From positions 28,770,001-28,834,000 of the forward strand of contig OZ076409.1 of assembly GCA_964187785.1 (NCBI GenBank): a DNA stretch of 64,000 bases. The letters run 5' to 3'. Below the pieces are notes generated by a model that made no database searches, was not told the origin of the DNA, and saw only the letters and a list, made by a program, of their open reading frames with translations. Below are positions 13,565-42,753 of the stretch, in pieces. A program made the translations under genes and the position numbers. Source of the DNA: Amphiscolops sp. MND2022 (lineage: Eukaryota). Every line of letters begins with the position of its first letter. Position 1 is the first letter of the stretch.

Positions 13565-13581
13565 TTATACTTAAATAAATA

Positions 13582-14307: not shown

Positions 14308-14361
14308 TTGGTAAAATTTAAACTAAATACTTTATAAAATTAGGTTTTTATTTAAAGTTAA

Positions 14362-14883: not shown

Positions 14884-14944
14884 ATTTATTTAGTAAAAAT
14901 AAAATCAGTATAAAATTTAAATCCTAATTTTTATTCCTATTTAA

Positions 14945-15390: not shown

Positions 15391-15502
15391 ATTATATATA
15401 AATTTATATATATATATATAAATTTATAAAATGATATTTGAAAAATATAATACAGTTTCGCTGATCTTTGATAAATAAATTTATAAAACAATATATTTAT
15501 TT

Positions 15503-18500
15503 TTATAAAAGATGTGCTCGATCATTTATCAGTTTTAAAAGCTGTTGATGGGTTAGATTTTCTTTTTGGTACCAAATATTCAAATAAATTTCTCCATCTG
15601 TTTTCTTGCTACCGTCAACAATTATAGTTAAATCTTTATAATACAAACCAATTAATTTCAAACAATATATACAAGGACAATCTCCTTTTTGAGTGTGTTT
15701 ATCCCATGGTAAACTTTGTACTGGATTTATATACAAACGTTTATCGTCAAAAGGATTCAAAGCTAGTTTGTTTTGTTTTTCAACTGTAAGGTTGTGTAAA
15801 TTAGATCTAATTGATATATTTGTAGAACTTGATGTTTCTGAATTAAACAATGAATTTTTGTAGTGTTCACATTTGGGAGCTTTTTGTATTCCTTTTTGTT
15901 TGGCTTTTTGAGTGATACCATTCGGACTATTATAACCAAAAGAATACGACTGTGATCGCAATGCTGTGAAGGTATCTAACACCAAAACTGGACTTGTTTC
16001 AACTTTCATTTTTCCTATAACTTTCTTGTTAATAGGATTATATAATTCATGAGATTTGTGTAATTCACTGAAATCAAATACATCTTTGTTTTCTTGTAAA
16101 AAGTTTATTATTTCTTGGTTGTTTGTATCAAAACTCAGAATAAAACTATCAATATCCATGTAGTGTAGTTGTATGGCTTGTTTCCAATATGGTTGTAATT
16201 TGTTACAATAAAATTCATACATTAATAGTTTTGATAGTTCTAAAACTGTAAAACCTAAATAAATTGGTTTATCAAAGACTGTTTTTTCTTTATCAAACTT
16301 GTACACACTAAACTTAGAATAATGATCCACAATGCCTTTGAAACTTAACTTGGATTGTCTTTTTATTATTTGATCTATTTGAGAATGATCAGTGAATTCT
16401 AGATTGATTCTATCTCTTACATTTTCCATTGTCTTGCCGAAGAGAGCATTGTTCATTAATTTATAAAGATCCTTTTCAAAGTTTGTTTTCGCTACTGTGC
16501 GTTTTTTGGTGTTATGATCAATGTATTTTGCTAACCATGGACTTTGCTTGAAGCGGTAGATTGTATGTATCTTCGTTACTTTCATCCCTTGGTTAAGATA
16601 AAACTTAAACATCCTATAATGTATCATATATTTCGATTTATTGGTTACATCACACATAAGTTTTGATGTTGGTTTGTAATTAGGTTGATTTACATTGTTC
16701 ATATAAGCTGAGAATAAGTCTGGATCTGCTTTTGTTTAATACGGACAAAAAGGAAAGTTTTTTGTTTTTTCTTTAATTTCAACAGGATTTTCTAAATCAC
16801 ATTCTATGAAGTAACCATATTCATTATCATCAGGTATTTGTAATAAATCTTCTACTAATTGCTCTAGTATTAGTATTGACTCATTGCCCATCCATATAGA
16901 TTATTTGCATCGATATATAAGATTTGTTTATTTTCATCAGATTGCACGTGACGATCTCCCATTACACTTGAAATTCCTCCACGGATATTATTTTCAAGTA
17001 GTAGTAATAATTCTTTATCTTTTATAAAGTCTAACTTTATATTAGTCAACTTCAATCCTGCTTTCCATGTTTAACCAGGTAGAGAGTAACTATACAAAGG
17101 ATTAATTTTATATTCTCGTGTAGAACTTTCCACAAAGTTTTCGAATACATCAGTTAATTGAAGAACATCCTATTTTAAGTATAACATAGTTAATTGTTGT
17201 CCGTTCTTTATATTATTTTTATCAATTAATTCTTGGGTTCTATTTATATCATCATCTGATGGATAAGATTGTGTTAATGTTGACCAATAATCTTCTTTGG
17301 TTAGATTAAGTGGTTTATCAAAATTATCCAAGTTAAAAGGTTCATATGGATAAGCTAACTTCTTCTTAAATAATTTATCTATAAATCCATTTTCATCCAT
17401 TATCGGTAAGCTGTCTAAACTCTTAACTAATTTATCTAAACTACTACTTAGAAAACGGTATGAATCTAAGAATCTTAAGCAACCTACTTGAATTGATACA
17501 TAATTTTCCATTGACTTTGGGATTATTTTTGGTTCATACCCCTTTTCGAAAGCTTGCATTAAGAGTTCTTGAAATATAAGATGACAATCATACCCAGAAA
17601 AGTTATGGAAAAATATAGGAACAAAACTTGATGACCTTTGTTTACAATTTATGTTACATATTTTATGAGCTGCTCCTCTGTATTTTCCTGTTAGATGATC
17701 ATGATCTCTTACCTTATCTTCTGTAAAAAGCTCTTCGCAAAGCCAACACTCTTCTGTAAGTTTGAATGATTCTTCTTCTTGAGGAGTTATTTGTAATTCT
17801 AAGTTTGTTTTAAAATATTTATTTGCTTCTAGTTATAATTTTAACATTTCCTTTACAAACCACTTGGTACAATCTGTTCCAAAGTATGAATTATACTTGC
17901 TTTCAAATGGTGAAATTATATAATATCCTACTGTAATTGGAATTTGTTTAAATAATACTTTGGGGTTATTTTGAGGTTGATTAATACATTCAAAATCTGC
18001 AAATACTCTAATAGGTAAAGGTATTTTCATGTGATGGTCTTCAAATTTTAGATGATCTTTATAACTGAAACTGATTTTAGTTGGTTGTTGTTTTTGACAA
18101 CGGTCAATGTGTTGACTGAGAATATCCTCAGAACTAAATGCAGTTAGACATCTTCTACACACCCATTTCATGTGTGAATCCTTATTTAGTAAGCAATGCA
18201 ATTTTGTTATTAAGCAATAATGATTTTCAAATAGCAGCAAGTCAATTTGTGATTGTAAGTAATTTTTGGTAATATGAATTGGTGTTAAAACTGCTCCCGT
18301 GAGTTCAAAAACATTTACGTTTAAATTATTTAAGTTTTCGAACTTGGGAATATCTTTAATTTTCATGGGGAATTCTAAACCATTTAAAATGAGTTTGTTC
18401 GTGTGCATTGAATAACTTGATGTTCTATTTTTATGATCCTCAACGGGAAAAAGGTGTGCTAGGATGCACCACAGAAAGCAAAATTGATCATCATTTTTTA

Positions 18501-19213
18501 TATTTAAAATTGATTTATTATTCTTATACTTTTCTGGCAACTCAATGTATGAAGATGCTTGAATATCATTAATTTTATATGTTTCTAATATAACTTCTTC
18601 TATTTCTTGAAACACAAAACCTGATCCTTCTAATTGTTCATCATCTAGTTTCTGCATTAATGTGTTATGAGTATCTTGTTGTGTACCGGATTGCATGTGA
18701 TTATATATTAAATCTGATTTTATCCATCTTTTAAATACTTCTTCTTCTCCATTGACTATTTTTGAGAATTTAGCTAGATATCTCATTTGATATTTATATC
18801 GGAGAAAATAATTTTTACTAAGTAAGTCATTTATGTTATGTTCAAGATTTTCAGTTGGATTTATTTTAAGTTTAATGTATGTATTTTCATTCATAATTAT
18901 TTCTACTCCATTACCGAAAGTGTTTTGTATATTGTTTTGTTGACGGTTTTGACGGTTTTGTAAATGAGTTTCACTTTGGAAATGCCTTGTTTTATCAGAT
19001 ATATATCTATTACAATCTTCACACCAAACACGTCGTTGTTCGGTTTTATTTTTATGTTCATCTGAATTTAGATGACTAGACTTACCTGAATTTATTACAT
19101 TTAATTACATTTAATACATTTAATTTTTTTTGATGACCTATTGAATATATATGATCGGATTTATAAGCTTTTTTATAATCAGAATTACAGATACTACAAT
19201 TCTCCATTTCCAT
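15503..19213 (-). pseudogene. polB: Protein-primed family B DNA polymerase with N-terminal zinc fingers and an endonuclease VII-like insert
   Basis: ADFEC (ExoI), RDHDHLTGKYRGAAH, FFHNFSGYD (ExoII), FLDSYRF, IRGGIS, YIDANNLYG (motif A), KLMNNALFGKT (motif B), YMDIDS (motif C, normally DTDS), FDDKR. Several stops. Confidence 0.95.
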
Positions 19214-19399
19214 TTATTAAGGAAAAAATAGTTTAATTAAAATTTTTCAATATGTCTTTTTTTAAAAAAATGGAATTTTTTAAAATTTTTCTCACCTGTG
19301 GGTTCAAAATGAAAAAGTTTGTTAGAAACAAAATTTGTTCATATTTTGGATGTCTCCAATTTTAGTTACTGACTTTTCACGGTAGGACCAACCAGTCAC

Positions 19400-20075
19400 G
19401 AGTAAAATGAGAAAAACCCAATTTTCACACCTGTTTCATCACATGGTAATCAGTGTGTCCAAGAAACAGAAAACTTTCCTTCTGAAAAAAAAGTTTGTCT
19501 TGTTATTGTCTATAACTTTGATATTCTGCGTCGGCCTTGTAGGATGACTCAATTTCGAGAAAATTGGGAAAAACCCATTTTTCACACCTGTTGGGGCAGG
19601 TGGTAATCAGTGGGTTTTCAGTAACGAGCTGAAATTTGGTGGAGAGACTTATTTTCTGACGCCCTACATTTTTGGTCCTTTGAGTCATCACGCTAAGACT
19701 AACGGTTGAACGAGTTCCTTTGATCTTGCAAGTTTCAAGGTCAACCCTGATCTCAACACCTGTTCGGGTCACATACAAGCTGAGTATACCATAAGAAAGA
19801 TCATATATGAGAGTGGACCTAATTTACAAGTGTTACTGGTCTTACTCCAACCATTTCCGAGAAAATTGAGAAAAACCAATATTTTACACCTGTTGGGGCA
19901 GATGGTAATCAGTGGGTTAAAGATACAGAAAACGTCCTTGTTGAAAAAAGTGTATCATGCTATTGTCTACAATTTTGATCTCCTATGTCATTTCGCTGGG
20001 ATGAGTCAGTCTCGAGAATTTTGAGAAAAACCCCATTTTCACACCTGTTTTAGCACCTGGTAATTAGTGGGTTGA
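19400..20075. repeat. Four dispersed ~60-bp subterminal repeats in the Polinton right arm
   Basis: GAGAAAAACCC(A)TTTTCACACCTGTT...TGGTAATCAGTGGGTT-like units near 19408, 19565, 19868 and 20023. Confidence 0.8.
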
Positions 20076-20595
20076 TTTTAGAAAAAACGTTAAGAGACAA
20101 AATTTGTGTAACTTTTGATTATCTACAAGTTTTGTTTCTGTGAACTTTGTCTAAAATTGTTTTCCGTTGAGATATTAAACAAAAAATGTTTTCCCATGTA
20201 TTAAGATTAGGTATATTTCACTAAGTCATGAAATAACTTGCTTGGAAATTATACTCGGTGAAACAAAAATGCAAACCGAAATTCAAACCAAAACCAAAAC
20301 TCAAACCAAAACCAAAACTCAAATAATTTCAGAAATTATCAGAATTTCCGACTTGGTTTAAATGCTTTGATCTTTTTTCATGTTTCTCGAGTGTGGAATG
20401 TCACTTTGTCATCACTGCACACTTCACTGCAAAAATGAATTGAATTGCACATGTTACACTTTTAAGCCAGCGTTGCTGTAATTCATTCCAAAAAATTTTT
20501 GCTACACAAATTTTCTCTATTACCATAATGGAGGTTAGTGAATTTTTGCTTCATGACAAAATTGTTTATTAATAAATTTTGCTCATTGATTTTTA

Positions 20596-20761
20596 TTTTG
20601 TTAATTTTTAGTTGTGAAAAATGACTACTTTTTAGATGGTTTGCCTTGGTTATTTTTTAACAGTTAGTTGTGAAAAAAACGTTGATTTTTAAAAAAATAT
20701 TAATTAACATTTGTTTAAAAAATATATTTGACTGGCCCGAATCGGGAATTCGTATACTACT
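20596..20761 (-). repeat. Polinton right terminal inverted repeat
   Basis: Ends ...GACTGGCCCGAATCGGGAATTCGTATACTACT, followed by the TSD CATGTT. Confidence 0.93.
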
Positions 20762-22806: not shown

Positions 22807-24010
22807 ACTTCACTTAGTAGCTTCCATAAACCTACGGCATTAATCTCACTCTCTAGAAAAGCGTGTATCAAATTTGAGCACTGCAACAATGACGTAACCC
22901 TAACGTATAGCCGGGAGTATAATGTCTTTCTTCCCTATGGTTGTTTTCCAATTTACTACTTTTATACTCCCAAGATGAATCCGTATCCATAAAATTCGAT
23001 GGCAAAATTTTTTCTAGAAATATGTTTTGAAGATATCAGAATATTTGACAGAAATAAAAACATTTTAAAATCTTCCAAAAATCTCCTCTCTAGATTTTCA
23101 GCTGTTTCATGCAAGCTTCAGACAACTTTCGAATGATTGTTGTCAAGATTTACATTTGAATAACATTAGCCAATGATGCTTGTATTTTTCAATAACCTAG
23201 AAGAATACATTTCCAATTTTAGTGACATTTGCTTACTTGAAGTTTTTTTTCGGAATAATCAGCGAAGCTTCAATTAACATCTACTTTACCTTTGATTAAC
23301 AGCTCCAATTTCACTTTTTTCCCAAGTTGAGACAGGCCGTGTCGATGACTTCGAACAAAGTTTTGCCTGAAACGCTTCTGTATGAACGTTATTGATACAG
23401 ACACGAAGCCATGCTTCGCAAACACTTGCAAAAAAATGGCGAAATTTTGAAGGGTAAACTAAATTAGCAATATTACATGGAGAACCAAGGGTTAAGGAGT
23501 CGGACTATTTTTCTACTAATTGATCATCTAAAAAAACAGCACAAACGACTGAATTCGTGTCCCGAAATGAGAATTGCTTCTTATCATCAAAGCTGCTTTT
23601 CAGATCGAAAGTCTAATTGTCATGCCAGCATGATGGAAATGTAATCTACTAAATATCTGTAATGTAAATATTATGTCTTATGTACTTAGATATGGGCAAT
23701 ATGATGTCATATAATAAGGGCCATGGTTGTGAGCAACCCTACGTTACTTGTACTTTAATCCCTTCCCCTTTTTGAGTGTGAGTTATATATATTTACTTAA
23801 TACTGAGCGCTCTAGTTCCGGTGTCCGCATAAATGATCTTGCCAGAATCTGGCCTTGAAAGTGCTATATTTCATAAATATTGGTTTGTCACGATAAGGGA
23901 GAGAAGTTTTCCGGTCAGACTGGACCGAAGAATATTGGAAGTAATGGAAAGTATAACTTCTACTAACTCCCCGCCTCAGAGTATGTAGTTGTGACAAATT
24001 CCATTAAATT

Positions 24011-24836
24011 CATCACAAATTCATCGTCGAAGTCGATGACGATTTTGACCTGATCAGAAATTTCACTTGGATCCATCCAGCGGATTCAACGGTGCTTTTA
24101 ACCAAAGTTCATCGCATTCCCATCCTTAAAGTTTGCGAATGAACAAAACATGGGACTTTAAACTGACTTTCATCATGAATCCATCAGCGGATTTTATGGG
24201 ACTTATTCTAGGAAAACTCATCTTTAATAAATCGTGATTATTTCGTTTAGTAATTCCTGAATGTGCTTCTCATTTCTAAAGAACAGTAGTTCATCCTTTA
24301 TTCATCGCGTTCACTAGTACAGAAGGGAAATGAGAAAGTACATCCTTAATTCATCCTAAAAAAGAGTGAAAGTGCTGGTTATCTGATTTGTTTAGTAAAC
24401 CCATCCTTAATTCATCTTGATTTCGTTTGTGCTGAAAATTAACCATTTTAGTGGGTGAGTTCATCCTAAACTCATCGCTAAATCGAATTGCTTTGGTATT
24501 CGGTGTTTTAATTGACAAGTTCATCCTAAACTCATCGCTAAAATTCTCCTGTACTAGAATTAGCGTTTATCGACTGAATTCATCCCGAATTCATCGTCAT
24601 TTGAATCTGTGCTGGAAATTGGCAAATTATGCATGGAGTTCATCCTTTTATCATCGTCAGTTTGAATTGTGTTGATTTCCGAACGAGAAAGACTACCATT
24701 CATCGCATTTTCATCCAGAGCAAAACTAGACTTGGAAATCAGCAAATATTCTTACAAGTTCATCGCATTTCCATCTTCAAGTTTTAAACCATTGATTTTG
24801 GCGCAGGAATCAGCGGAAAAACATCGTTTTCCCATC
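24011..24836 (-). repeat. Phased CATC-N7-CATC motif array in the LTR
   Basis: Motifs at 24011, 24110, 24171, 24292, 24341, 24402, 24462, 24522, 24581, 24641, 24701, 24761 and 24822; 60+/-1 bp period from 24341 on. Confidence 0.9.
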
Positions 24837-25027
24837 CCAAAGTGTGCTTTACCTTAAATTTGATTGAAATTAGTGCGTTATTGAATGATTTGAGTCCATT
24901 TTAGTTGCTAAAGAAACCATGATGTTATGTGCAGGCAATTGCGACATTGTAAATTGATGACTAAACACCATTAACACATGTAGATGTACCATGGTGCGTA
25001 GCCACTTTGCGGCAGTTCACAACACTG

Positions 25028-25146
25028 GTCACGTGACTTACCATTTTAGCACCAGCTGGTAACAGCCAATGAGAGAAGGTTGGTAAGAGATTTAGCGTCT
25101 TACCAACCGAAAAGACACGTGAACTGCTGTAATTTGGGCCGCCATT
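25028..25146 (+). promoter_or_regulatory. Candidate LTR promoter (E-boxes, CCAAT, YY1-like site)
   Basis: GTCACGTGAC 25028-25037, AGCCAATGAG with CCAAT at 25066, a second CACGTG near 25116, GCCGCCATT 25138-25146. Motif matches only. Confidence 0.45.
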
Positions 25147-25496
25147 AAATATTACTCAGCCCGAATTGCGACAAGCTACCGACCAGTTGGATATTTTAAC
25201 ACGCGAAAGTCAGAAAATACATCTCTATTTCATCGTCAGAAATTGAAGAATTTGAACTGAGTAATTTCCTTGGTACATCTACTACTGTGATGAAAATTGG
25301 ATGAACTCCTCCTGAATAACTTGCTAGTTCCCTTCTCCTTATCTAACTGCTTACTTATTTGTACGACTTCTTTCTAAAACATCTCAGTTTCAGATTAGTG
25401 AATTTGAGATTGAATATTCAGTTAAATCAGCAGAATACATTGAAACAACATCTCAGATAATTCAGTCTTCACTCATAATTCTTTTCTCTCGAATAC

Positions 25497-27002
25497 ATGA
25501 ACCCAGACCAAGGTACCGAACTTAGAAGCGGTAGAGTCATACATTCCTCGTCAGGAACATCTTCGCCAATAGATCCAGACATGGCTCAGTCATCCGCCAA
25601 TGACTCTGACAACAACGAAACTTCAGATATCTCGTCCCAGTTGTCTGAAATAAGAGAGAACTATGAGAAGAAGATAAATGAGTTATAAAGCGAATTTAGT
25701 CAACTGAAGAACTTATTAATGGCAGTTATTAGTAAAAATGACGAAAATAACTTACCTTCGGCATCGCAAAGTTCTTCAAAGCCGACCCACAGAGTCGGGT
25801 TCGACATGGTGACAGGAGTTACAGAAACCCGCTCCACCCGCCCGACATCCAGCTTCACAAACTTCAGGAGATACCAAGAAGACGACTCGGACGAAGAAGG
25901 TGAATCAACTCCTAGAAGCAATGAGGAACGACTACTCAATGCAATCGAGACGATCCCCCAACGAATCAAAAGCACCACCACCAACACGAAACTACTACAG
26001 ACACACGTCCCAAATTTCAGAGGCCAAAAAGACAAATTCGTGGAATTCGAGCACCTTCTCCTCAACCACCTTAGCCCGCTGGCCAACAAAATCACCGAAG
26101 AGAACAAACTCCACTTCTTTCAAAGCCTTTTGAGAGATGATGCAATAGAGTACTGGCAATCCATCCAGATAACGCCACTAACAACGCTGAAAGATGTGCT
26201 CGACCTCTTCAGGAAAGAATTCGCGAAAGAGGACCTTAAAGAAGTAGCTCGATACAAATGGGATCAAGCCCGTTACGATTCCACCACAGAAACATTCAGC
26301 GACTTCCTCAAAAACTTGAAAAAGATTGCGAAACAAGCATTTGGGGAAGAAGCGGATAAAATCATCAAAATGTTCTTGTTCGGTAAACTCCCAGTCGAAA
26401 TACAACAAGAACTTACGATGGCCAATAAGGAGGAGAGCTCACCAGAAGAAATCAAGACATACTTGATGAGAAAGTACCAGTACCAACAGTACGTTGCGCC
26501 ACCAACGGCAATTCAACCATTTAACGCGGTCACCTCCTCGGTCCCAACGACCAACACAACGATTAAACCAGCAACAACGACGACAACGCAACCGACAGAA
26601 CGAAAACGATTTGAGGGACAATGCTTCTACTGCGGAAAGACAGGTCACCGCAAAACGGAATGTCGCGCCCGACAACGTGACGACGCAAACAGCATTAAGA
26701 AAGAGGATGCAATTCCGATGAAGAAAGCAACCGACCCAGACAAACCGAAATACAATCCCAAGCTGGTTTGCCAGATTTGTGGATACACCGGCCACTCTGC
26801 AAGAGACTGCAGACGACGCATTCTCAAGGAAAGCAGCTCTGCATATGGAAAGATTCCATACACAACGAATTCACAGGACGACAACAAGGCTAGACGACAA
26901 GATTTAAAACGACAGCAAAAGCAGATGAATCCAATGCAAGCAATTACTGAGGACGACGAACAACTAAGCTACTCTGATGAAGACATTAACCAGGGTTTTT
27001 GA
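25497..27002 (+). pseudogene. gag: Gag with two CCHC zinc knuckles; starts inside the LTR; nonsense codon at 25686
   Basis: CFYCGKTGHRKTEC and CQICGYTGHSARDC. ORFs 25497-25688 and 25719-27002 share a frame; the 3' LTR has CAA where the 5' LTR has TAA. Confidence 0.92.
25807..25819 (+). other. Primer-binding site TGGTGACAGGAGT (probably tRNA-Leu)
   Basis: TGG immediately follows the LTR-terminal CA; resembles the TGGTGTCAGGAGT Leu-type PBS. Confidence 0.7.
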
Positions 27003-30000
27003 TTCAGCCACGATTTCCGCTCGCTAGAAATACAACGCGCGACAAACGACTTTCGACTCAACCGACTACACACAACCGTCCAATGAAGAAATGGCAGCCT
27101 TCACTGGACAAACGACCAAAAGCTGACGACGTCTATCAGCGAAGACTTTCCAACGATGAAAAAGCGATGGGAAATGCACGTCAACGCAACAGCAGCCGCT
27201 TTTCTCCACTCTCTGAAATCAACGATGAACAAACGATGAACTGGCACCAAAACACCATGAGGCAGGTGGACGATGCCAAAGAGATGGACACCAACCATCT
27301 AGACGACGACTCGACTTCATACTCAACAATCGACAAACGGCTTAGTATTAAAAAACATGCAAAACATAGTAGTATTAACATTTCAAAAGCTAACAAACAT
27401 GCAACTAAAACAGAAATTCACGTTCTTAGTCCCACTTTACATTTAAACAAGAAAGATAAAATGCTGTACGTCCCTCTTCAGTTTGATAAATACGAAAATC
27501 ATGCACTGTTAGACACAGGCGCAATTCAAAGCGCAATGTCTGAAGCAGAATTGTGGAAAATAACAACGGCTCATCCAGAAGCCATCCTTCAAGAACTCCC
27601 CCCTCCGAATTTCAAAATTCAAATAGCAAACGGGAACTTAGTCCCAGTGCGTAAGCAAGTCTTACATAGATTTTACGTTGCTGGAAAAGTCTTTGAAGAA
27701 ACGTTCCTAATCCTTCCAACAATGGGCACAATTTTAATTGGAATGTCATTCTTTGAAAAGTACTCAGTCAACTTAGACATAAAAAACCACCTTGTCCACT
27801 TCCCTAATCACATGATGTCCATGCAAGTTAGACAGCAAAAGATCAACAGATTCAAAACTGGTTTAATTGATTTGTGTTCCAGTACTAGAACAGTGATCCC
27901 TCCTCTCCATCAAGTGATGATACAGGTCCACAGTGACGCAGACATCTCACTTACATCTGGTACAGTTGAGGGCTCACCTGGATTCATGCGAAAGACGTGT
28001 TTGCTTGTTTCCCCAGCTTTGGTTGACCTAGATGAGGGCAAGACGACAATCCAAGTCACCAACCCGAACAACCACACGTTCACACTTGATGCCAACACCA
28101 CTCTGGCACACTTTCGCATACCGACACCACATCAGGCGGCAAACATCACACCCATGCCAGTCGAACACTTGAACCTGATCACCAAGTACCCAGATGAGGC
28201 GGAAGCGGTGATCAACCAACTGTTCGTGAACCCTGAAATGAAGTCAACTAAGTGGTACCCAACTCCCGAGACGTGCAGTGAGCCAGACAAACTCAACGCA
28301 ATTGAGCGACGAATCTATGATGAGATTCTGGCACTGCGAGAGCTCGAGAAGCTTGACCCGTCCCAATCCGATGAACAACGGATGAACTTCCTGAAGAACT
28401 TCAACTGGGACGACTCGCTTCTTACTCCGTCTCAACGGTTACAGGTAGAGGAGTTGCTGGTAAAGTACAACTCCATTTTTGCTAGACATCGTTTTGATAT
28501 TGGCATGAACACTGATTTTAAAGTTAAGCTAACACCCCAACATGAAGAACCTGTTTATTCACAAAGTCTCCCTACTCCGACAAATTTGAAGGACGATTTG
28601 CTCGTGGAGTTAGCCTTAATGCAAGAGTACGGGATCATAACTACTTTGCCTCATAGCAAATACTCATATCCGATATTCGCTCAACGTAAACCTAATGGTA
28701 AATTGAGGATTTTAGTTGACTTGAGAAGAATAAACCACTTGATCAAAAACGATTACGGTGAACACAACCATCCCGTAACAACAATTGCTGACGCTGCCCA
28801 ACACATGGCCGGGAAAAAGTACTTCTGTAAACTTGATTGTTCCCAGGCCTACCATTGCATCCCAATGGCCGATGAGCAGTCTGTCCAACTGTTATCGTTT
28901 AATTTTGGTTCTAGAACTTTTGCCTTTTTACGCCTAGCACAGGGCCTTAATCGTTCTTTGTCAGCATTCACAAGTGTAGTCCGTGAGTATTTGGACCCCC
29001 TGGTCAAAGCGGACCGATGTGCTCAATATGTTGATGACATCGGAATTGCAGCACACACCCCTGACGAACTGATTAATAACCTTGAACTTGTTTTTCAGCA
29101 GTTGAACAAAGCTGGTCTTAAGCATGAGTAAATGTGAATTTGGACAAAAGCAAATTGAGTACTTGGGAAAAACCATTTCTAGCACCGGTATTGCTCCCAT
29201 TGAGAAACGAGTAACTGACTATCTGACCAAATTGAAACCCCCAAACTCAGTGAAAGCGTTGCAACGTTATCTTGGTTTTGTAAACTTTTACAGGTCTTAT
29301 ATTCCCCGCCTAGCTGATAAAACTTGTTGTTTACAGGAGTTGATCAAGAAGGACGTCCCTTTCAAACTGAATCAACAACATAAAGATGCTATTTTTGAAA
29401 TCAATGAAAGTTTGTTAAAAGCAACAAAAGTGTCCCTGAAATTGCCATTACCTGATAAACAATTGGTAATCATGTGTGACGCCAGCGAACACGCTGCCGG
29501 CTATGTTTTGTTAATTGAGGATTATGCTGACCCGTCAGTCAAACAAACATACGCCCCTGTTGCATTTGGCTCTAAGAAATTTCAGGGCGGCCAGATGTCT
29601 CTAACAATGTATGCCAAAGAGTTTTTAGCTATGCACTTTGCCTTCGATGAATTTGGCCACATTTTGTGGGGTGCGAAAAAACCCATCATTGTTATGACTG
29701 ACAATAAGGCCTTGACTAGATTTTTTCAGGCGAAGCATATCCCGCCTTCACTTTGGAATTTTTGCGATCAAACCCTTCAGTTCAATTTTTTATTAGCACA
29801 TGTTCCAGGAGTTGAAAATCCCGCAGCGGATTACTTATCTCGGCTTGAGATTAGACCTGAAGACCGTGTACATTTAAATTTGACTGATATTATTCCAATT
29901 CACAGAATCGAGATCGACATCGCCTCCCGTACACCAAAACAGGAGGAAGACGAGCCTGATTACTTTCCCACGAGCGAACCACTCAGATGCAAACGCCAGA

Positions 30001-32087
30001 AGGATGTCAAAGAGATGAAATTGGCAACTGGCACTGACGTGGCTCATGACGATGGGAAAGGGATGAAGTTCACCAACTGTGAGAGAACAGCGGCCTCAGA
30101 TGACTTCGCGACTGACAACCATCTGACGTACCGCCTCACAGACGTGGACGAGCCGATTCAACTCTCGCAATTCATCCGTAAAGTATCATTATCACACCCG
30201 GTAATGAGTCAGGTTAGCCCCGCTGAGGGGATCGATCTAATTCAAGTCCAGAAAAATAACTGGGTTATTCAAAACATGATTAGATTTTTAGAAGGTACTG
30301 AAATTTTAAAACACCCAGTTAATATGCAAGATCAGTTTTTTCAAAAGTTGCACAAAAATCGAAAACGCCTACAAGTTGTAAACGGTGTCTTGTACAGACA
30401 GTTTTTTGATCACACGGGACTGGAGTCTCACAAGCAGTTAGTCGTTCCTGAAGACTGTATTTTGAAAATAATTAGGACTCTACATAACAGCCCGGTACAA
30501 GGACACCCTGGTTTAAAGGAAATGTTGTACGAACTTCGTAAAAGATATTACTCTCCTACCTTAGCCTGTAAAGTTCAAAAAGTCCTTGACGGATGTGAAA
30601 ACTGCATGAAATCTAAAAGTGTAAAAGAAACGCAACTACGTCCACCGTTACAAAAAATCTACGACCCGTGCGACGGACCAGAAGACCTGTTGGAAATAGA
30701 CATCGTTGGTCCACTCCCGGCGTCGAACGGTTTCACACACATTCTGACGGCTGTTGACGTTTTTTCACGCTACCTGTTCGCCGTTCCGCTGAAGAGACCT
30801 GATACACATTCCGTAGTCAGAGGATTACTGTCGATCTTCACGAAACACGCGTATGTGCCCAAGCACATTCTGACGGACAAGGGCACGGCGTTTACGGCTG
30901 AACTTCTGTCTGAAATCGCGAAAGCGGCTGAAATTCACATCTACCATGCCACGATAAAGCACGCACAGACAATAGGCATGGTAGAGAGAACGCACGCGAA
31001 ACTGAAAAAGATCCTTAAAATTAGTGTAAACGCAGACCGACCACAATGGGACCGCTATGTCGACATAGCAATCATGGCCCATAACACAACGTATCATGAT
31101 TCACTGAAATGTTCACCAACTGAAATTTTCCACGGAAGAACACCATACAACCCACTAGATCTGCAATTCCGAAACGCAAACAAACCGGCTGAAACAAAGT
31201 GCAAGGACGTGAACGAAATTCTAGACAAAATGAACTTCATCTTCAGAGACAATCTAGATAACATCATTTCCGCCTATCATAAGTACAAAACGTACTCTGA
31301 TAGAAAAGCACGAGCACAGCCACTGAAGGTGAATGAATTTGTGTTCCTACTAGATCCTAAGTACGACTCTCAGAGAAGCAAAGAAGAGTTTAAAACTTTC
31401 CATTGGAAAGGACCGTACAAGGTGATGAAAGTGCTATCCGATAGCAACTACATCATCCGCAAAGTAGGCACACACCAAACTCAGTGCGTACATCGCATGC
31501 GACTGAGATTGTTTAAACCGGAATTTCCGATTGATGACATCAACGTGTCCAAACATCTCTACCCAGACACTGAAAGGGTTGAAGACACGGACATTTTCGA
31601 CTCGAATATTCCGACGACTGACGAAGTAGATCAGAATGAGAATGACAATCTAGATCAAGACTTAGTCGAAGAAGAGCCTTCAGAAGAAATAATTCCGCAG
31701 GTACAAGAACAACACAGTCCACAAGTAATTCCACCAAAAATAACCACGAGAATAGATTATCAGCAAGTAGAAACTGACCACAACAACTTTAGACCACCTA
31801 CAGTTAGATTCGGAACACAAGAGGAAATTATTCTACCGCCCCCCCACGATGAAAGTAGGATAAAAGTACCTCTGAGAGACGAACAACACGAAAATCAGTC
31901 ACAACAGACAAACACGCAAACTGAAGATGAGGAAAGGATGAGTTCTAAACCGTCTAGAAACAATCAAAGTAGGTACAGGTTACGCGAGAACCCTACACCG
32001 AAAAAATATCCTGACTTCCTTATTCATGAGATTACATCAGCCAGAAACTCTCTGAGAAAGACCAACATAGTAAACGTAACGAGTTAG
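26999..32087 (+). pseudogene. pol: Pol (protease, RT, RNase H, integrase with GPY/F motif); one frameshift near 29123
   Basis: LLDTGA; YVDD; CDAS...KEFLA...TDNKAL...AADYLSR; H..GH..CENC; IDIVG, TDKG, VERTH; WKGPY. ORFs 26999-29131 and 29124-32087 break inside RT. Confidence 0.95.
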
Positions 32088-32115
32088 CCAAGAAAAACAA
32101 CATTTCAAAACACAC

Positions 32116-32650
32116 GATGTGTTAAAGATGAACAATTCACAAAAACGAGTCAATTACATGCAATTTCAATTTAAAATGAACATGAAGATGTAAAATGGAT
32201 GAAAAGTTACTAAAAATCACATGAAAAACGCATCAAAATAAAACACGATGTAAAACGGATGAAAAACGACCAAAAACCCAGAAAAAAACAAAACACAAAA
32301 TTTGAGATGAAAAAAGGATGAAATCACATGAAAATTTATCCCAGACACACGAGAGATGAAAAAGTGATGAACTCAGTCAAAAATTCGACCAATCAACATG
32401 CAATATTTACTAGCGATGCATTTGAGATGGAAAATACCATCAGAATGCGAACGCACTCACGTTCATGCTATCATAATACTCTAGCTCGGCTAGAGGATGA
32501 AATAGCGATGAACTCGATCCAATTATTCAGAAATTACATGAAATCAATTAACGAGATGAATTTGTGATGGACACTACCATCAAATCGTTACCGAATTTAT
32601 CGTTAGCCTGACACAATACTCTAGCTTCGCTGGAGGATGTCGAAACGATG
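32116..32650 (+). repeat. GATG-N7-GATG array downstream of pol
   Basis: Nine motifs at 32116, 32187, 32247, 32306, 32355, 32415, 32496, 32555 and 32636. Confidence 0.9.
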
Positions 32651-34043: not shown

Positions 34044-34422
34044 GATGAAAAGAAGATGAACTATGCAGCAAAATGAGCAAAATTCGACAAGTCAAAACTT
34101 GCGATGCAAAAACGATGGACTACAGCAAATAACTCGCCAAAATGATAAAATGAAAACGCAAGATGAAAAAACGATGAACTTTGCAGAAAAACACATGAAA
34201 CAACATGCAATGATTTCCACACAACGAAAGATGTAAAAAAGATGAGAAAACAGTTTTCGCGACGTCGCTCGGTCGACTGAGGAAAACAAGATGAAAATGA
34301 GATGAGACATCACAATGAAACACTGATGAATTAGCCACACCTACACGAGATGTAATAACGATGAACACCGTAATAAAAGTTATCTAAAACGCGCGAAAAT
34401 AAAAAGTGATGAGAAAGCGATG
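34044..34422 (+). repeat. GATG-N7-GATG array downstream of the antisense gene
   Basis: Seven motifs at 34044, 34103, 34162, 34230, 34290, 34349 and 34408 (~59-68 bp spacing). Confidence 0.9.
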
Positions 34423-34685
34423 AAAACTATCCGCAAATCTAACCTATCCCTATCCTCACCTAAAAATGTCTCAAGAGAAAAACAAATTTCGGGTGCCAAA
34501 CACTAAATTTGTATATATCTACGCTACCGAACTTTCCGACGTAGCATCTGTTGTTCTCCCCCCCCCTGTAAATTCGTTTAATTGGTCACCCATTTGCTAG
34601 ATACAATACTATAACATACAGTAATATAAAATAACATGAAAGATACAAACAGCTTCAAACAATAGTAATAAACAGCAAGTCAATT

Positions 34686-37600
34686 CTAAACCTCAGGGCT
34701 AGCTGCGCGCTCTCCAGCAGCTGTAAATCCGATCGCATCGTACAACGACTGACGGTATTCTTCATCCGCGACTACTCCTACATCATCCCACAGCATCTCT
34801 TCTGTCAAATCGGCTAAAGCTGTGAAATGACTCCGTAACCTCCTCCAGTAACGGCCCACTCACAGTTTCGAACTGTCTGATGGAATGCGTCCTCAAATAA
34901 CTTAGAATACTTGAGCAAACACTTGTCGTGACATCACTGCTCAACCCTCCCACGCTGACGCAACTGATACCTGCTGGGAATACAGGTGTCTCACCCAGAC
35001 ACATCAAGAAACGGAAGAAGCGTTGACACGATGAACTCTCACATGCCCGCAAAATGTCCACTGCTGAACTTGCACTGTCTACGGACATATCAACTGCATT
35101 CTGCCTGAAGTTGGTCACGAATGAGACGAAGCTCCCATCCATCCGTCTCTTCTCAGCGAGTCCTATCCTCCCCAGATCCAGGAGCAATCCAGTAAATTGT
35201 TCAGCTTCATTTCGTAACACGTCAATTTCACCACGCAACAAAAGAGCAGGGCAACCCACACTCAAATGATATGTCACTTCTTCTTTCATTCCGGGAGCAG
35301 CTAGAATGTCTTCAACCACTACAAACATGAAGCTTTGCACCATCGCCAAGTGTTCATCAATTACGGCAGCTTCTGCAACTTGCCCTAAGTAGGGACCAAA
35401 TTCATCCCTCATGATTCGCAACTTGGCATGTGACACAGTCAAATTGTCCACGTCCACTTCCAAGCAAGCCCGCACCTCGGTCACACTAGGCAGGTCATCG
35501 TCGTCTATCAGCTTGACTAAGATTGCGTGCACAAAACACGCACTCTCGTACGCCCAATGGAAACTCCTCGATGGACAACTGCTGAAGCTCCAGCGATACG
35601 AATCGACGACTGAAAACAACAAAATTTAATGCAAAAAAAACATAGTCAAGTCACACGCTCTTTACTCGATTCCCGAACCAAATATCTTTTATTAAATTAA
35701 GACACTGTAAATAACGAAACGATATGCACCAAGAAAACAAAAAAACATACATACGTGCACGAAAGACACTAGCTAAGGCCTGCAGACGGAAAGGGATAGC
35801 ACGATCCCCACACAGCACAAAGTCCAAAGACTCAATGATGCCGGATCCACTAGGCACTCTCAACAGATTCGAGACCTCTGCCCAATTCTCAGACAACTCA
35901 GCCAACACGTCCGGTACGTCCCAGAGGGTTACCTCTCCGTCTAACACGGACTAAAACAAACAAGAATTTATAAAAATAAAAAAATTCCTAAATTACACAC
36001 GATACAACCACGAAAAGCATCACCCCCAAAAAATCGACAAATCAACAGCAGTGAAAAATAATCGAGAAAATAGGAAATAGTTACCTGCAAGAGCTTTGGA
36101 CGAGCTAAAAAGATTGGGTCCTGTACGAATTCTTTTAGCCTTGATTGCAAATGGTTCAATATCGTATGTACATCTGTCCCGCCCATCACACGAATGCTCG
36201 CATCCACCAGACGCTTGTTTAGCTCGGTAAGTTTTAACGACACAAGTGAGACTGTCCTTGGTCCAGAGCGGCTGACCAACACTCTTTCCAGCCCAGACAA
36301 CAGTCGACAATTGAGGCCAACAGGTGCCAATTGCCCCACAGCGCAACACAACATATTGACAGCCCACGAGACCACTCGCTGCTCCCACTCTTGTCCATAA
36401 GCAAATGAAAAGACCACAAAGTTCGCAGGCCCTTCCGAGGTACATACATTCAGCGTGCCCACCACTCTGTCAGCCACTAATGTGACACCGAAACTACTGT
36501 ATTCTGTTTCGGACCATGAACCAATTACTCGTCTCATCACAAACGGCCAGAGTCCAAGTAGAACAACGCTCAATCATCGTTTTAATTTCTCATATAGTTA
36601 CCTACTCACCACTCGATTAACACACACCCCAACCTTGTAGTTTTTAACAAAAAATAAAAATTTTCATACAAATACCCCAAAATTATCGGAAGTTTCACAT
36701 GTAACATACAAATAACAATACATGCAACATGTAATTATTTCATGCATCCGGAAAAGATTCATAATAACCAGAACGTCGGATTCTCGACAAGTCGCGCCAA
36801 ACATGATAGCATGCTGCGAATTGGAGGCAACCATCAGGTCCCAAAGATGTCGCACACTTGCAAAATTACAGTCCCGATAGATCGCATCAATCACTAGACA
36901 CACGAACAATCGAAAACTGTCAGTGTGGTCGTCATCCTCTGCGACTCGCCTTGTGCCCCACACTGAACCATCACTCGCCTCGATCTGCAGTGCCTCCAGA
37001 ACAGTCACATCTGGACACGTCTCAATCAACGGCACTGACTCACCACTTAGTGCGGCACCACACACGTCTGCCTCGGCTTGGGACATCAGTGTCCCATCTC
37101 GTCTGCGCAGCGGTAGGCCCCGTCGCAATCGCGTCAGACAGTCCAGCCGGTGGTGTCTGACTCCCCGGCAGTGTTCAAAGAAGGTTGTTATCCCGCGGCT
37201 ACCGATCTTGACATCTTGCCTGCAGAGTAGACATCTCGCGTACGAATCGCGCGTAAGGTGATCCTTCGGGAAGCCGAGCGCCAATCCACAATAAGCATGG
37301 TTAAACCACGCTGACTTGAGAATTTTCCTTCCCGATATCAAAAGAACAACGAAAAATGTTAACCCCATCCTCTACACATCCTAGAATACCGAAAAATAGA
37401 AAATCAACTGAACATTTCAAAAAAAAACAAACAACTCACCCGGAGTGATGAAAACATGATGTAAAATAATATTTTCATTGGAAATATAAGCGAAAAACGA
37501 AGAAAAAACGAAAAGATGAAAAAGAGATGTGTTTACAAGCCACCAGGACAGAAAATTGAAACTTTAAAAGACGAAAGCCTCGAACGATGAAAAAGAGATG

Positions 37601-39425
37601 TATAGAACAACGTTGAACCAAAATTGAGATATTTTAGAGCGAAAATGACTTAACGATGAAAAAGAGATGTAAACTGAAAAGAAAACGACAAAAATGGCTA
37701 AAGACCGAGCAAGAAAATTTTAAGGATGTAAAAGAGATGGAAACTCCTAAAAAAATGATCAGAAAAGAAAACGCTATACTCAAGACTTTTAAGGATGAGA
37801 AAGTGATGGGAAATGAAAAACTGCAGAAAATCATATGAAAAACAGAAAACGATGGAAAATAGATGGAAAAGAAGAAAGACGTGAAAACACTGGTGAAAGT
37901 GGAAGTGAAAAGAAATGAATAAAAGTTACCGATCAAATACTTCACAGAGTTAAAGATGTTTAAGTAACCTGGCAAGCGAGACGCAATGGGCTCGTCGTCG
38001 GAATCCACGAGGCTGGGTCCCATGGGAGATGTCTCAGAAGACACAGGAACCAGACCAGGAACAGCACCTTCTGGAGCAGGCTCTGCAGACAGAGGATCAC
38101 CAGCAGGGACATTCTCGACTGCCTCTAGTAGGGTACCAGTGCTGTCGGCTGACGGCACGTCAGACTGCTCGACGTCAGCCTCCAAAGTTCCAGAGACGCT
38201 AGCAGCTGGCGAAGAAGGAGCAACCGGAAGGGTGTCCACGGGAGGATCATATTCTGTGGATGTCTCGCCAGTTTCCACAACGGCCTGAACAGACTGATCA
38301 GCAACAGCCACGCAGGCATCTACCGCCACATCCACAGGAGTGACGACGGCACTGACTCCTGTCTCTACGGTGATACGAACAAGAGGAGGAGGACTTTGAG
38401 TTGTTGATTCACGGTCCAGAAATCGCTGAAAGCTTGGCGAGAGCACAGACACTGGGGCACGTGCCACAGGGGAGCTGATCGCGCCCAGAGACAAGTTCTG
38501 GAGGAACGAGGACATCTCCAGGGAAGAAGGCCCTCCTTGGGTAGCAGCGTCAATCTGTGTTGCACCAAAGTCGCTCGTTCCTATACCCACGGAGTACGTA
38601 ATAGGGCGAGGCCTTGGGGCATGGATAGGAGTCGGGCCTGAAAGAAGAAAACAGAAATCAGACGACGACAGATGATGAAGAGAGTGCGCGTACGCCGCGC
38701 GAAGAAAGAAAACAGGAAACGAAGTCACCAAAAATTTCACCCTCAAAATGGAATTCGGAAAACGGATTAGCCACGAAAGGACGGTGAATGTCCATGACGC
38801 ATCCCAAATTCATCTTAAAAAATGAATTTTATAGGTAATCGACCGTGAAGGGCACTACATGCAGATGAGATGTTTACATCGGAATTACATCGGAGTGTCC
38901 GGACGGTACCTTAGTACAGACGGAAAATGTGAAAAGGAGTCAACTCACTGTACTGCTGGATGCTATCTCGTAGCATGTCCCGCATGTGACGATCATACCA
39001 CTCGAAGGTGATGCTACCCAGGGAGGCATGCCAAGGATAGTGATCTAAACATCAAACGGAAAGAGTCAACGTCTGAAGGGACCAGAGATGAGAAATGAAG
39101 AGATTGTGGACTGAATTGAAGATCTGGAGGGACAGAACTTACACTGCGGAAGATACGGGACATTGGGAGCCTGACCAAACGGTTGGTCAGGTTGAAGTTC
39201 AGGAGCTGCTGCTTGAGCTTCGGGAGCCTCTTGGGGCGGCACGTTCTGCAAAGTGGTCAGCTCAGAGACTACACCGACAGATTGAACTGAGTCCGCTAAA
39301 AGGCCAAGACGCGTTTTCAACACCTAATTGTTCCCCGACCCGTTTGTGAAAGAAAAGAAAATGGTGCACTTACTTTCTGTAGCTTCGGTCTCTGGAAGAG
39401 AATGAACGAAATGGATGTCAGACAT
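34686..39425 (-). pseudogene. Antisense multi-exon accessory gene (~1000 aa) with a Pro/Ser-rich region and a BED-like zinc finger; a few disabling mutations in this copy
   Basis: GC-rich minus-strand coding blocks bounded by GT/AG sites with matching phases: ~39323-39143, 39072-38949, 38637-37969, 37331-36769, ~36570-36085, 35950-35755 and 35609-34686. Finger CLLCRQDVKIGSRGITTFFEHCRGVRH. The start exon and the 36769-36570 junction are uncertain. Confidence 0.72.
37447..37865 (+). repeat. GATG-N7-GATG array inside the predicted intron of the antisense gene
   Basis: Seven motifs at 37447, 37515, 37586, 37655, 37725, 37794 and 37851 (~70 bp spacing). Confidence 0.9.
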
Positions 39426-39926
39426 CACTGTAATTTGCAAAGCAATCTGAAAAGGAACGGAAGAGAGTGAGGAAGGAACGAAATCGAAGAATCTGGTGAC
39501 AAGAATTTGGTCAGTAATTAAATGGCCTGATCAACCATGATTGCGGGATACAAATTCGCGGAAAAATCTCAAAGAGCGCGGATGCAGCTTGAGTGCCAGG
39601 ACAGACCAAATACTTGAAATTCAGAACATGGAAAATCGATGAAAAACTCTCCGATTTCAATGACTGCCTACACTTTTCTTCCTAAATCAACCAACTTAAC
39701 AGTTTTCTCTGAAAATGGATCACCCCCCAGAATTTGACTACAAAAGCTTCAAGTATTTGATTTTGATGACAGCTGCCAGTCTCAGATCAATACCGACGAA
39801 GTTGAGCGGAAACGCGCAGAGGGAATCGTGGCGATTTTCAAACCGACTTGACGGAAGATGATTCAAGGATGAGAATATTTGTTGACAACCGGTTGGATTT
39901 CTTTCAGTTCAGAAAATTCAGTTTTC

Positions 39927-40047
39927 AACCAATCAGAATTAGCAGTGATTGCTATGGCAACAGGCCATCTCTTTCTCATCGCTGAGAGTTCAGACAGCGG
40001 AAGTAGCTTCAACAGTTACTATGGCAACGACTCATCTCTTTCTCATC
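39927..40047. promoter_or_regulatory. Candidate promoter of the antisense gene: two RFX X-box matches and a CCAAT box
   Basis: ATTGCTATGGCAAC 39948-39961 and GTTACTATGGCAAC 40015-40028, each followed by CATC-N7-CATC; AACCAATCAG near 39927. Confidence 0.5.
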
Positions 40048-40558
40048 ACGGAAGCTGATAGCAAAGCAACGGCGCCAGTCGTCTGCTAAATCAACATCGA
40101 TGCCTCGCTGTGTAAACAATTCATCGTTCATTCATCCCCGACTCGCTGCCAATTTGTCAATGAAGCTAGTCGAATTGTTTATTCAGTGTAGGCGTTTTGG
40201 AGGGAATCTTTTCTCCGAGAAATCAGCTTCTACCGAAAATAACCAGCCGAAACTCCCATCAAAAGCATGACAGCCAATAAAATGCAGATCAGCGGACATT
40301 CGATAGACCAAGAACTAGAGTTGCCGCGTCGATAAAATTTAACCGAAATCACCCAGAATGAAACCAGATATGACGATTGCCGAAAGTCCTCTTCTCAAAG
40401 AAGATTTGCATAGGACGGAACAAACGAAGGACATGCCAATTCAGAACTAACGAAGGCCATTTTCTCCCCAACCAAACGAAGGTAGCAGTCGAAGCCAACG
40501 CCGAGACAACCATTCTCTGCACATTTGGCCCCTGCACTCTCAATCCAAATCCCGCCCC

Positions 40559-40564
40559 GGGGAG
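40559..40564 (+). other. Short polypurine tract GGGGAG before the 3' LTR
   Basis: Directly precedes TGTCATG at 40565. Confidence 0.65.
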
Positions 40565-42753
40565 TGTCATGCCAGCATGATGGAAATGTAATCTACTAAA
40601 TATCTGTAATGTAAATATTATGTCTTATGTACTTAGATATGGGCAATATGATGTCATATAATAAGGGCCATGGTTGTGAGCAACCCTACGTTACTTGTAC
40701 TTTAATCCCTTCCCCTTTTTGAGTGTGAGTTATATATATTTACTTAATACTGAGCGCTCTAGTTCCGGTGTCCGCATAAATGATCTTGCCAGAATCTGGC
40801 CTTGAAAGTGCTATATTTCATAAATATTGGTTTGTCACGATAAGGGAGAGAAGTTTTCCGGTCAGACTGGACCGAAGAATATTGGAAGTAATGGAAAGTA
40901 TAACTTCTACTAACTCCCCGCCTCAGAGTATGTAGTTGTGACAAATTCCATTAAATTCATCACAAATTCATCGTCGAAGTCGATGACGATTTTGACCTGA
41001 TCAGAAATTTCACTTGGATCCATCCAGCGGATTCAACGGTGCTTTTAACCAAAGTTCATCGCAATCCCATCCTTAAAGTTTGTGAATGAACAAAACATGG
41101 GACTTTAAACTGACTTTCATCATGAATCCATCAGCGGATTTTATGGGACTTATTCTAGTAAAACTCATCTTTAATTCATCGTGATTATTTCGTTTAGTAA
41201 TTCCTGAATGTGCTTCTCATTTCTAAAGAACAGTAGTTCATCCTTTATTCATCGCGTTCACTAGTACAGAAGGGAAATGAGAAAGTACATCCTTAATTCA
41301 TCCTAAAAAAGAGTGAAAGTGCTGGTTATCTGATTTGTTTAGTAAACCCATCCTTAATTCATCTTGATTTCGTTTGTGCTGAAAATTAACCATTTTAGTG
41401 GGTGAGTTCATCCTAAACTCATCGCTAAATCGAATTGCTTTGGTATTCGGTGTTTTAATTGACAAGTTCATCCTAAACTCATCGCTAAAATTCTCCTGTA
41501 CTAGAATTAGCGTTTATCGACTGAATTCATCCCGAATTCATCGTAATTTGAATCTGTGCTGGAAATTGGCAAATTATGCATGGAGTTCATCCTTTTATCA
41601 TCGTCAGTTTGAATTGTGTTGATTTCCGAACGAGAAAGACTACCATTCATCGCATTTTCATCCAGAGCAAAACTAGACTTGGAAATCAGCAAATATTCTT
41701 ACAAGTTCATCGCATTTCCATCTTCAAGTTTTAAACCATTGATTTTGGCGCTAGAATCAGCGGAAAAACATCGTTTTCCCATCCCAAAGTGTGCTTTACC
41801 TTAAATTTGATTGAAATTAGTGCGTTATTGAATGATTTGAGTCCATTTTAGTTGCTAAAGAAACCATGATGTTATGTGCAGGCAATTGCGACATTGTAAA
41901 TTGATGACTAAACACCATTAACACATGTAGATGTACCATGGTGCGTAGCCACTTTGCGGCAGTTCACAACACTGGTCACGTGACTTACCATTTTAGCACC
42001 AGCTGGTAACAGCCAATGAGAGAAGGTTGGTAAGAGATTTAGCGTCTTACCAACCGAAAAGACACGTGAACTGCTGTAATTTGGGCCGCCATTAAATGTT
42101 ACTCAGCCCGAATTGCGACAAGCTACCGACCAGTTGGATATTTTAACACGCGAAAGTCAGAAAATACATCTCTATTTCATCGTCAGAAATTGAAGAATTT
42201 GAACTGAGTAATTTCCTTGGTACATCTACTACTGTGATGAAAATTGGATGAACTCCTCCTGAATAACTTGCTAGTTCCCTTCTCCTTATCTAACTGCTTA
42301 CTTATTTGTACGACTTCTTTCTAAAACATCTCAGTTTCAGATTAGTGAATTTGAGATTGAATATTCAGTTAAATCAGCAAAATACATTGAAACAACATCT
42401 CAGATAATTCAGTCTTCACTCATAATTCTTTTCTCTCGAATACATGAACCCAGACCAAGGTACCGAACTTAGAAGCGGTAGAGTCATACATTCCTCGTCA
42501 GGAACATCTTCGCCAATAGATCCAGACATGGCTCAGTCATCCGCCAATGACTCTGACAACAACGAAACTTCAGATATCTCGTCCCAGTTGTCTGAAATAA
42601 GAGAGAACTATGAGAAGAAGATAAATGAGTTACAAAGCGAATTTAGTCAACTGAAGAACTTATTAATGGCAGTTATTAGTAAAAATGACGAAAATAACTT
42701 ACCTTCGGCATCGCAAAGTTCTTCAAAGCCGACCCACAGAGTCGGGTTCGACA
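40565..42753 (+). repeat. 3' LTR (2189 bp), retaining the open gag N-terminus from ATG 42444
   Basis: Direct repeat of 23618-25806, followed by the TSD CTAAT. Confidence 0.96.

Follow-up and report, generated by a model that had tools for sequence, protein, structure and literature searches.

The word CATC-N7-CATC, two direct CATC half-sites with seven bases between them, is a selected double-stranded DNA site that tolerates either orientation, is helically phased and is confined to a single element within the window, i.e. the whole 64-kb stretch of DNA that was analysed. The carrier is a 19.1-kb Ty3/gypsy LTR retrotransposon at 23618-42753. It holds 73 exact copies of the motif and the remaining 44.9 kb of the window hold 0; the window as a whole was expected to contain 1.59 copies, and in 100 shuffles the count never came to 73, with a maximum of 7. 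As judged from the sequence, the motif very probably has a protein-binding role, and its reader is probably encoded by the element itself, the link between protein and motif being their co-occurrence in one element.

The carrier element and the distribution of its motif

The element belongs to Ty3/gypsy. It has LTRs with TG...CA ends and is flanked on both sides by a CTAAT target-site duplication, and Pfam matches place gag before protease, RT, RNase H and integrase in the expected order. The 5' LTR (23618..25806, + strand, 2189 bp) carries 15 exact motifs, 14 on the + strand and 1 on the - strand, and the 3' LTR (40565..42753, + strand) carries 16; the two LTRs show 11 differences over 2189 bp. 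In the sequence, a primer-binding-site-like stretch that starts with TGG lies immediately 3' of the 5' LTR (25807..25824, +), and a short purine/GC-rich tract in the PPT position adjoins the 3' LTR (40553..40564, +). Gag, which has CCHC knuckles, occupies 25497..27002 (+), and pol, with protease, RT, RNase H and integrase, occupies 26990..32087 (+). The alignment of gag relatives of 501 aa starts at 25497, within the LTR, and the gag frame opens about 310 bp inside the LTR (25497-25806), upstream of the primer-binding site, so that the first ~100 codons are present in both LTRs. This copy of the element is recent yet broken in three of its genes: gag has a stop near 25.69 kb, pol lies in two frames that are split near 29.1 kb, and the accessory gene has a frame shift near 34.8 kb. 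The family comprises 1482 sequences in the pol cluster and 188 in the gag cluster. To judge by the intron-like structure and by the LINE-like and Polinton-like elements nearby, the host is a eukaryote and probably an invertebrate animal. CpG observed/expected is 0.89-0.99 across the element, which means that CpG is not depleted.

Array A (24011..24836, +), with which the original prediction was concerned, contains 13 exact copies of the motif, and its second copy lies at 40958-41783 in the 3' LTR. The array indeed sits in an LTR, as was predicted and as is now evident from the paired LTRs, their TG...CA ends and the CTAAT duplication. Nine consecutive motifs at a spacing of 59-61 bp had been described between 24341 and 24822, and all nine are exact (24341, 24402, 24462, 24522, 24581, 24641, 24701, 24761 and 24822, with spacings of 61, 60, 60, 59, 60, 60, 60 and 61 bp). 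Four upstream copies (24011, 24110, 24171 and 24292) had been called looser, which holds for their irregular spacing but not for their sequence, as all four are exact; it is a fifth upstream copy, at 24219, that has one mismatch in the 5' LTR, and this copy is exact at 41166 in the 3' LTR. The seven-base core does not differ freely, as had been supposed, since A/T makes up 91% of its three middle positions (57 copies), and array A includes two neighbouring motif pairs with identical cores. Nor are the spacers largely unrelated: those of array A are weakly related, with an ungapped identity of 0.34 vs 0.27 after shuffling (z 6.5) and a gapped score of z 5.6. Because of this weak relatedness, array A can be taken to have begun by tandem duplication. 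Tandem Repeats Finder did not report array A, because it has decayed too far.

Array A is only a part of what is an element-wide, both-strand feature. Array B (32116..32650, -), directly 3' of pol, has nine motifs at spacings of 49-81 bp; array C (34044..34422, -), which like array B lies downstream of the antisense gene described below, has seven at 59-68 bp; and array D (37447..37865, -), in a predicted intron upstream of the finger exon of that gene, has seven at 57-71 bp, mostly 68-71 bp. Four further copies, at 39857 (-), 39966 (+), 40033 (+) and 40122 (+), span 39857..40136. One copy lies in gag (26706, -) and nine lie in the coding DNA of pol (27155, 27224, 27272, 27572, 27943, 28370, 30003, 30051 and 31926). 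The longest motif-free gap in the element is 2.7 kb and the first exact copy lies 393 bp from the element end. The orientation of the motif shifts along the element, from + in 14 of 15 copies in the 5' LTR to - in 8 of 10 copies in gag and pol.

The enrichment concerns one arrangement of the half-sites only. In one LTR plus the internal region, a gap of seven bases gives 57 copies vs 0-3 at every other gap from 0 to 30, and inverted arrangements of the half-sites give at most 5 copies, so that it is the direct arrangement alone which is enriched. Among the gapped 4+4 words of the element, CATC-N7-CATC leads by a wide margin (57 copies vs 1.8 expected), and single CATC is unenriched (7.8 per kb in the element vs 6.9 outside). 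Copies with one mismatch number 26 inside the element and 24 outside. The restriction of the motif to the element was judged on this one 64-kb window, in which the motif-free 44.9 kb include other gypsy fragments, a LINE-like element and a Polinton-like element.

Three decayed gypsy-like copies (44500-49700, 52800-55400 and 60850-63900) are 67-75% mutually alike and stand far from the main element in sequence (27% over RNase H); they contain no CATC-N7-CATC and no match to the accessory protein. Three CCGT-N5-ACGG palindromes lie within 140 bp (49545-49690) at the 3' terminus of a decayed gypsy element, and these are possibly another element-specific site. A decayed LINE-like insertion at 55375-58330 has endonuclease- and RT-like frames that were recognised by eye from the translations. 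The Polinton-like element (7259-20761) is AT-rich, has terminal inverted repeats at 7259-7433 and 20595-20761 (90%), and its frames comprise two A32-like ATPases, an rve integrase and an endonuclease VII match. Its CpG observed/expected is 0.58 vs about 0.9-1.05 elsewhere, and it holds four CAGC-N3-GCTG palindromes, at about 9513, 10968, 11133 and 20468. A perfect 257-bp inverted repeat of 15-bp units at 1938-2452, with 1 base between its arms, is either a foldback element of very recent origin or an artefact of assembly. Long terminal inverted repeats also bound two small elements, at 42966-43503 and 43514-44281, the first of which is built of 16-25-bp GTACGAAATGTC-type units. Clusters of the words GTAA-N4-GTCA / AGTTAGTCAA, partly in inverted pairs, occur at 58394-58720 and 60570-60680, about 2 kb apart, and may represent the subterminal repeats that belong to a small DNA transposon.

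Selection on half-sites, spacing and codons

That half-sites and spacing are kept by selection, rather than left over from neutral tandem decay, was the central claim of the original prediction. It is borne out by the invariant columns of the arrays, by the enrichment at N=7 only, by a 10.2-bp spacing ladder and by the imprint of the motif on gag and pol, where tandem duplication cannot account for it. Firstly, eight columns show no variation, and they are the same ones in each of the four arrays (A-D). The LTR array has 9 invariant columns out of 49, of which 8 are the half-sites, with 1.0 expected under uniform decay. Across the four arrays, 9, 9, 10 and 11 invariant columns were seen vs 1.0, 1.4, 3.4 and 5.0 in a uniform-decay star model matched to mean identity, and the numbers seen were reached in 0, 0, 10 and 33 of 5000 simulations. 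As this is a simple model and the motif itself served to choose the units, the test is not decisive alone. Exact and one-mismatch copies in the element stand at 73 to 26. Of the 11 differences between the LTRs, 1 falls in a half-site and 1 or 2 fall in cores, which is too few to test half-site conservation.

Secondly, the motifs are helically phased. The same-strand distances between neighbours of at most 130 bp (n=38) fall at 48-49 (4), 57-61 (19), 67-71 (9), 77-81 (3), 89, 99 and 121 bp. The best period of this ladder is 10.2 bp (R 0.78), which 0 of 2000 random sets match, with a null range of 45-100 that was our own choice and with distances that are partly dependent via duplicated units. 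The ladder remains without the 57-61 class (R 0.75) and also persists when only distinct values are counted. The half-sites themselves lie 11 bp apart, about one helical turn, and the minimum same-strand distance between motifs is 48 bp. Together, the one-turn distance of the half-sites, the ladder, the 48-bp minimum and the occurrence on both strands suggest that a protein occupies the duplex DNA, with its neighbours bound to lie on the same face, and the use of both strands favours DNA over RNA.

Thirdly, the motif is imprinted in coding DNA. Gag and pol contain 10 motifs vs 0.93 expected after synonymous shuffling (0 of 1000 shuffles, maximum 5), and 8 of the coding copies translate as D-[GAVED]-x-x-M. 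All 8 occurrences of D-[GAVED]-x-x-M in gag and pol encode Asp by GAT and have a fourth codon that ends in G, which is what the motif requires; with the codon use of the element, and with sites treated as independent, the joint probability of this is 2e-9. The peptide is over-represented as well (8 vs 0.83, maximum 6 in 2000 shuffles), and thus the DNA word has left its mark on the amino acids too. Among 30 listed family proteins (15 of 1482 for pol and 15 of 188 for gag, three of them from the window, all 86-99% identical to the reference), a compatible peptide is kept at 62 of 65 site instances and lost at 3. The original prediction named half-sites that mutate as fast as spacers across the family as the observation that would speak against it. 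In the protein-level counterpart of this comparison, the Asp and Met columns are off the majority in 1 of 131 cells and the flanks in 64 of 1336, the cells being not independent. As far as can be read from the codons, selection is strong enough to shape both codons and amino acids of gag and pol.

The antisense gene and its BED-like finger

In the stretch that separates pol from the 3' LTR, the element holds an antisense gene that is conserved, apparently spliced and equipped with a BED-like C2H2 finger. The predicted upstream exons (37969..39450, -) are acidic, rich in S, P, A and V and probably disordered; their structure, drawn from ORFs and splice-like sites, is uncertain. They are followed by a predicted exon (36760..37325, -) with the finger and a conserved helical segment, in which a motif copy lies at 37084, and by middle predicted exons (35755..36573, -) with an alpha/beta segment at 36085-36570 and a small exon near 35755-35950, the limits of which are predicted only, from donor-like sites and a low-confidence model. 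The last predicted exon (34680..35625, -) encodes a conserved all-helical domain that, according to alignment, tblastn and the model, has about 300 aa in relatives. There were 84 matches for 36667-37371, 29 for 35971-36573 and 49 for 34786-35625, the last 49 at 48-96% identity. One of the 84 matches of the finger exon, P0082, is unrelated and was rejected as a relative. The motif site in the accessory gene is compatible in 12 of 51 rows only.

The finger has the pattern C-x2-C-x8-RG-x6-H-x5-H. BED zinc fingers have the pattern C-x2-C ... H-x(3-5)-H/C plus an upstream aromatic residue, and the finger fits this pattern of zinc ligands, the aromatic residue included. Of the aligned rows that cover them, 40 of 45, 39 of 45, 38 of 45 and 40 of 46 retain the respective zinc ligands, at overall identities down to about 20-25%, and many of the aligned rows resemble decayed copies. 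In library searches the finger matched BED domains best, though always weakly. It is under the gathering cut-off of Pfam zf-BED (PF02892; 13.2 bits vs 20.6, E 0.094), 3 of 57 family members match BED at E<=0.05 (best E 0.019), and the match to ZBED2 (2djr) has an E of 0.4.

By eye, the succession of finger, helical segment, alpha/beta segment, T-L-W stretch and long helical domain is what we take to be the layout of a hAT transposase. The last-exon model has a confident helical fold over residues 20-210, and a comparison with PDB and viral structures gave no clear match (best Z 5.7, rmsd 2.9, 72 aligned, to XerD, which is background). The middle-exon model, with a helix, three strands and a helix (pLDDT 52), gave no known fold in the fold search (best Z 5.0). 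A hAT transposase was absent among the rows listed by the fold searches and also from the sequence searches. The PDB sequence search with accessory alignments A2 and A3 gave 0 matches at E<=10, Pfam at cut-off gave no family in the 7 accessory frames scanned, the ESM Atlas gave no usable match for the finger exon, and 0 of 7998 candidates scored when longer proteins were sought with accessory alignment A1. ESM Atlas matches of P0106 (scores 0.82-0.83, low recognition; an 'RNA silencing suppressor' cluster) were treated as chance. Translations of relatives that run through introns were uninformative for motif footprints. DNA relatives of the element were found in none of the metagenome, genome or viral contigs; a three-motif pattern matched 30 loci in viral contigs, and these were mostly 11-bp minisatellites or short repeats, as seen by eye in the first 75 bases of the match, and no locus could be linked to the element.

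Possible readers of the motif and comparison with known systems

If a protein reads the motif, it could come from the host. A dimeric or two-domain host transcription factor or chromatin protein could bind sites that the element gained as an enhancer or insulator, with the antisense gene doing something else. Selection, phasing and double-stranded recognition fit any binder, LTRs often bear arrays of host-factor sites, and Drosophila gypsy, which carries Su(Hw) sites, is a precedent for a host-factor enhancer or insulator. However, the motif has 0 copies across the 44.9 kb of flanks, other retroelements included, and the element has a finger protein of its own. Moreover, a host enhancer needs sites in the LTR, but not in gag/pol linkers or in three internal arrays around an antisense gene. 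It seems unlikely that a host factor is the reader. Rather improbable is also a self-encoded reader that coats the cDNA, for assembly of the pre-integration complex, nuclear entry or target choice in the manner of hAT BED domains, or that auto-represses copy number. Such a role would fit with sites that span the full length and both LTRs (largest gap 2.7 kb), with CpG that is not depleted, and with the remainder of the protein, which is presumably hAT-like in its layout by eye and is modelled as helix, three strands and helix. Yet the arrays are found inside the LTR and around the antisense gene and not at the ends on which integrase acts, and the large family (pol cluster of 1482) fits activation better than repression, if weakly.

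An RNA signal, be it for packaging, for export or as the site of an RNA-binding protein, is very improbable. Accessory proteins of retroelements are reportedly able to act on RNA, CERV of Cer1 being an example, but here the orientation flips within one transcript (14 of 15 LTR copies +, 8 of 10 gag/pol copies -), the exact 11-bp distance of the half-sites and the 10.2-bp ladder are properties of duplex DNA, and an Rfam scan gave 0 matches. Neutral tandem decay, with the motif picked out afterwards and the coding copies being a peptide motif, hardly deserves credence: duplication did build arrays, as spacers are weakly similar within and between some of them (z up to 6.5), and the invariant-column test is weaker in arrays C and D, but the identical eight columns in all four arrays, the excess of exact over one-mismatch copies and synonymous positions that match the motif 8/8, beyond any peptide constraint, largely refute it.

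Returning to a reader encoded by the element, there is about an even chance that the antisense-encoded protein binds cooperatively to the motif and maintains the activity of its own family, much as VANC and TnpA do in plant DNA transposons. The family-specific site would consist of two direct 4-bp half-sites one helical turn apart, with an A/T-rich core between them, and would be read by a dimer or oligomer of the antisense protein with one BED-like finger per half-site. On a ladder of ~10.2 bp and at distances of at least 48 bp, successive complexes would lie on one face of the DNA and could bind cooperatively. The arrays would have arisen by tandem duplication first and then by loss of all but half-sites and phase, and the single sites in gag and pol would have been gained by point change. 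The arrays that crowd the LTR promoter and surround the antisense gene, together with the scattered sites, would allow the protein to mark the whole element, and this marking may act in trans to maintain transcription of the own family or to prevent its silencing, while feeding back on the accessory gene. Since CpG is not depleted, a VANC-like escape from CpG methylation is unsupported in this element, and any silencing that is opposed is probably not CpG methylation. The weak BED scores count against this reading, as does the palindromic rather than direct arrangement of the Hermes pairs; so do the 3 of 65 coding sites at which relatives lack a compatible peptide, the 12 of 51 compatible rows at the site in the accessory gene, and the broken state of this copy. 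More tentatively, a large clade of giant gypsy elements in an animal may have captured a hAT-type transposase as a spliced antisense gene and co-evolved with it a private, phased bipartite motif that extends across the element and into its coding DNA, which would result in subfamily-specific pairs of finger and motif and in anti-silencing self-recognition.

The element may work like VANC or TnpA. As the accessible part of the VANDAL study describes, VANC21 binds a nine-base motif that accumulated via tandem repeats in non-coding parts of VANDAL21, related VANCs recognise other motifs, and coding probes of VANDAL21 were without the motif (PMC5735166). As in this Arabidopsis system, insofar as the source covers it, a short family-specific motif occurs here in tandem non-coding arrays and an extra protein is encoded beside the transposition genes. 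Unlike VANDAL, which is a Mutator-like DNA transposon, the carrier here is a Ty3/gypsy LTR retrotransposon without a sign of CpG methylation; and unlike the motif described for VANDAL21 in that part of the paper, the one found here is bipartite (4+4 bp), helically phased and also present in coding DNA, and its candidate protein has a BED-like finger. In the available text on Spm, TnpA binds family-specific motifs of its own element, the clusters of which are needed for specificity, has HTH domains, binds near the termini and is proposed to derive from a transposase DNA-binding domain; the word 'retrotransposon' occurs 0 times in this text (10.64898/2026.08.24.746577). The candidate cognate motifs found here are clustered in a similar way to those which that text describes, and it would be a class I element that has acquired such a gene.

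Antisense genes of gypsy elements offer a second comparison. According to the parts of the sources at hand, plant Retand elements have antisense ORFs with predicted DNA binding and family-specific arrays, and antisense accessory genes of gypsy elements are suspected regulators without a known target (PMC7264820; PMC11963269). Like Retand, Grande and RIRE2 as presented there, the element has a long region from pol to the 3' LTR, a conserved antisense gene and tandem arrays nearby. The arrays of those elements are recognisable tandem repeats for which the same parts describe no binding motif, whereas here the units have decayed save for a motif that also marks LTR and gag/pol. TRP28 (PF04195) of Retand gave no match at E<=5 in 7 frames, nor at E<=0.05 in 87 alignment members. 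The BED domain of Hermes, in the accessible part of its description, reads AAGT followed by A/T-rich DNA, and paired sites are bound cooperatively; the pairs form a quasi-palindrome near the ends, for cut-and-paste transposition (PMC10368747). The motif resembles these Hermes sites in having a 4-bp word beside A/T-rich DNA in many copies, and differs from them, as described there, in that direct repeats occur throughout an LTR element; a hAT ancestry of the accessory protein body is unproven.

Self-encoded sequence-specific regulators with matching motif arrays are established in plant DNA transposons. In the literature searched, with most subscription journals outside it, no LTR retrotransposon was described that encodes its own finger protein and also carries a motif to match. 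The element described here offers a candidate reader together with a sharp candidate site of defined geometry (4+4 bp, 11 bp apart, on a 10.2-bp ladder with a 48-bp minimum), and the diversity of the accessory family, down to about 25% identity, provides natural finger-motif pairs for co-evolution. Even with a host reader, an element-wide phased motif would be unusual. If the more tentative reading, with a captured hAT-type transposase, is true, sequence-specific self-recognition and anti-silencing would occur in an animal, and there in a class I element.
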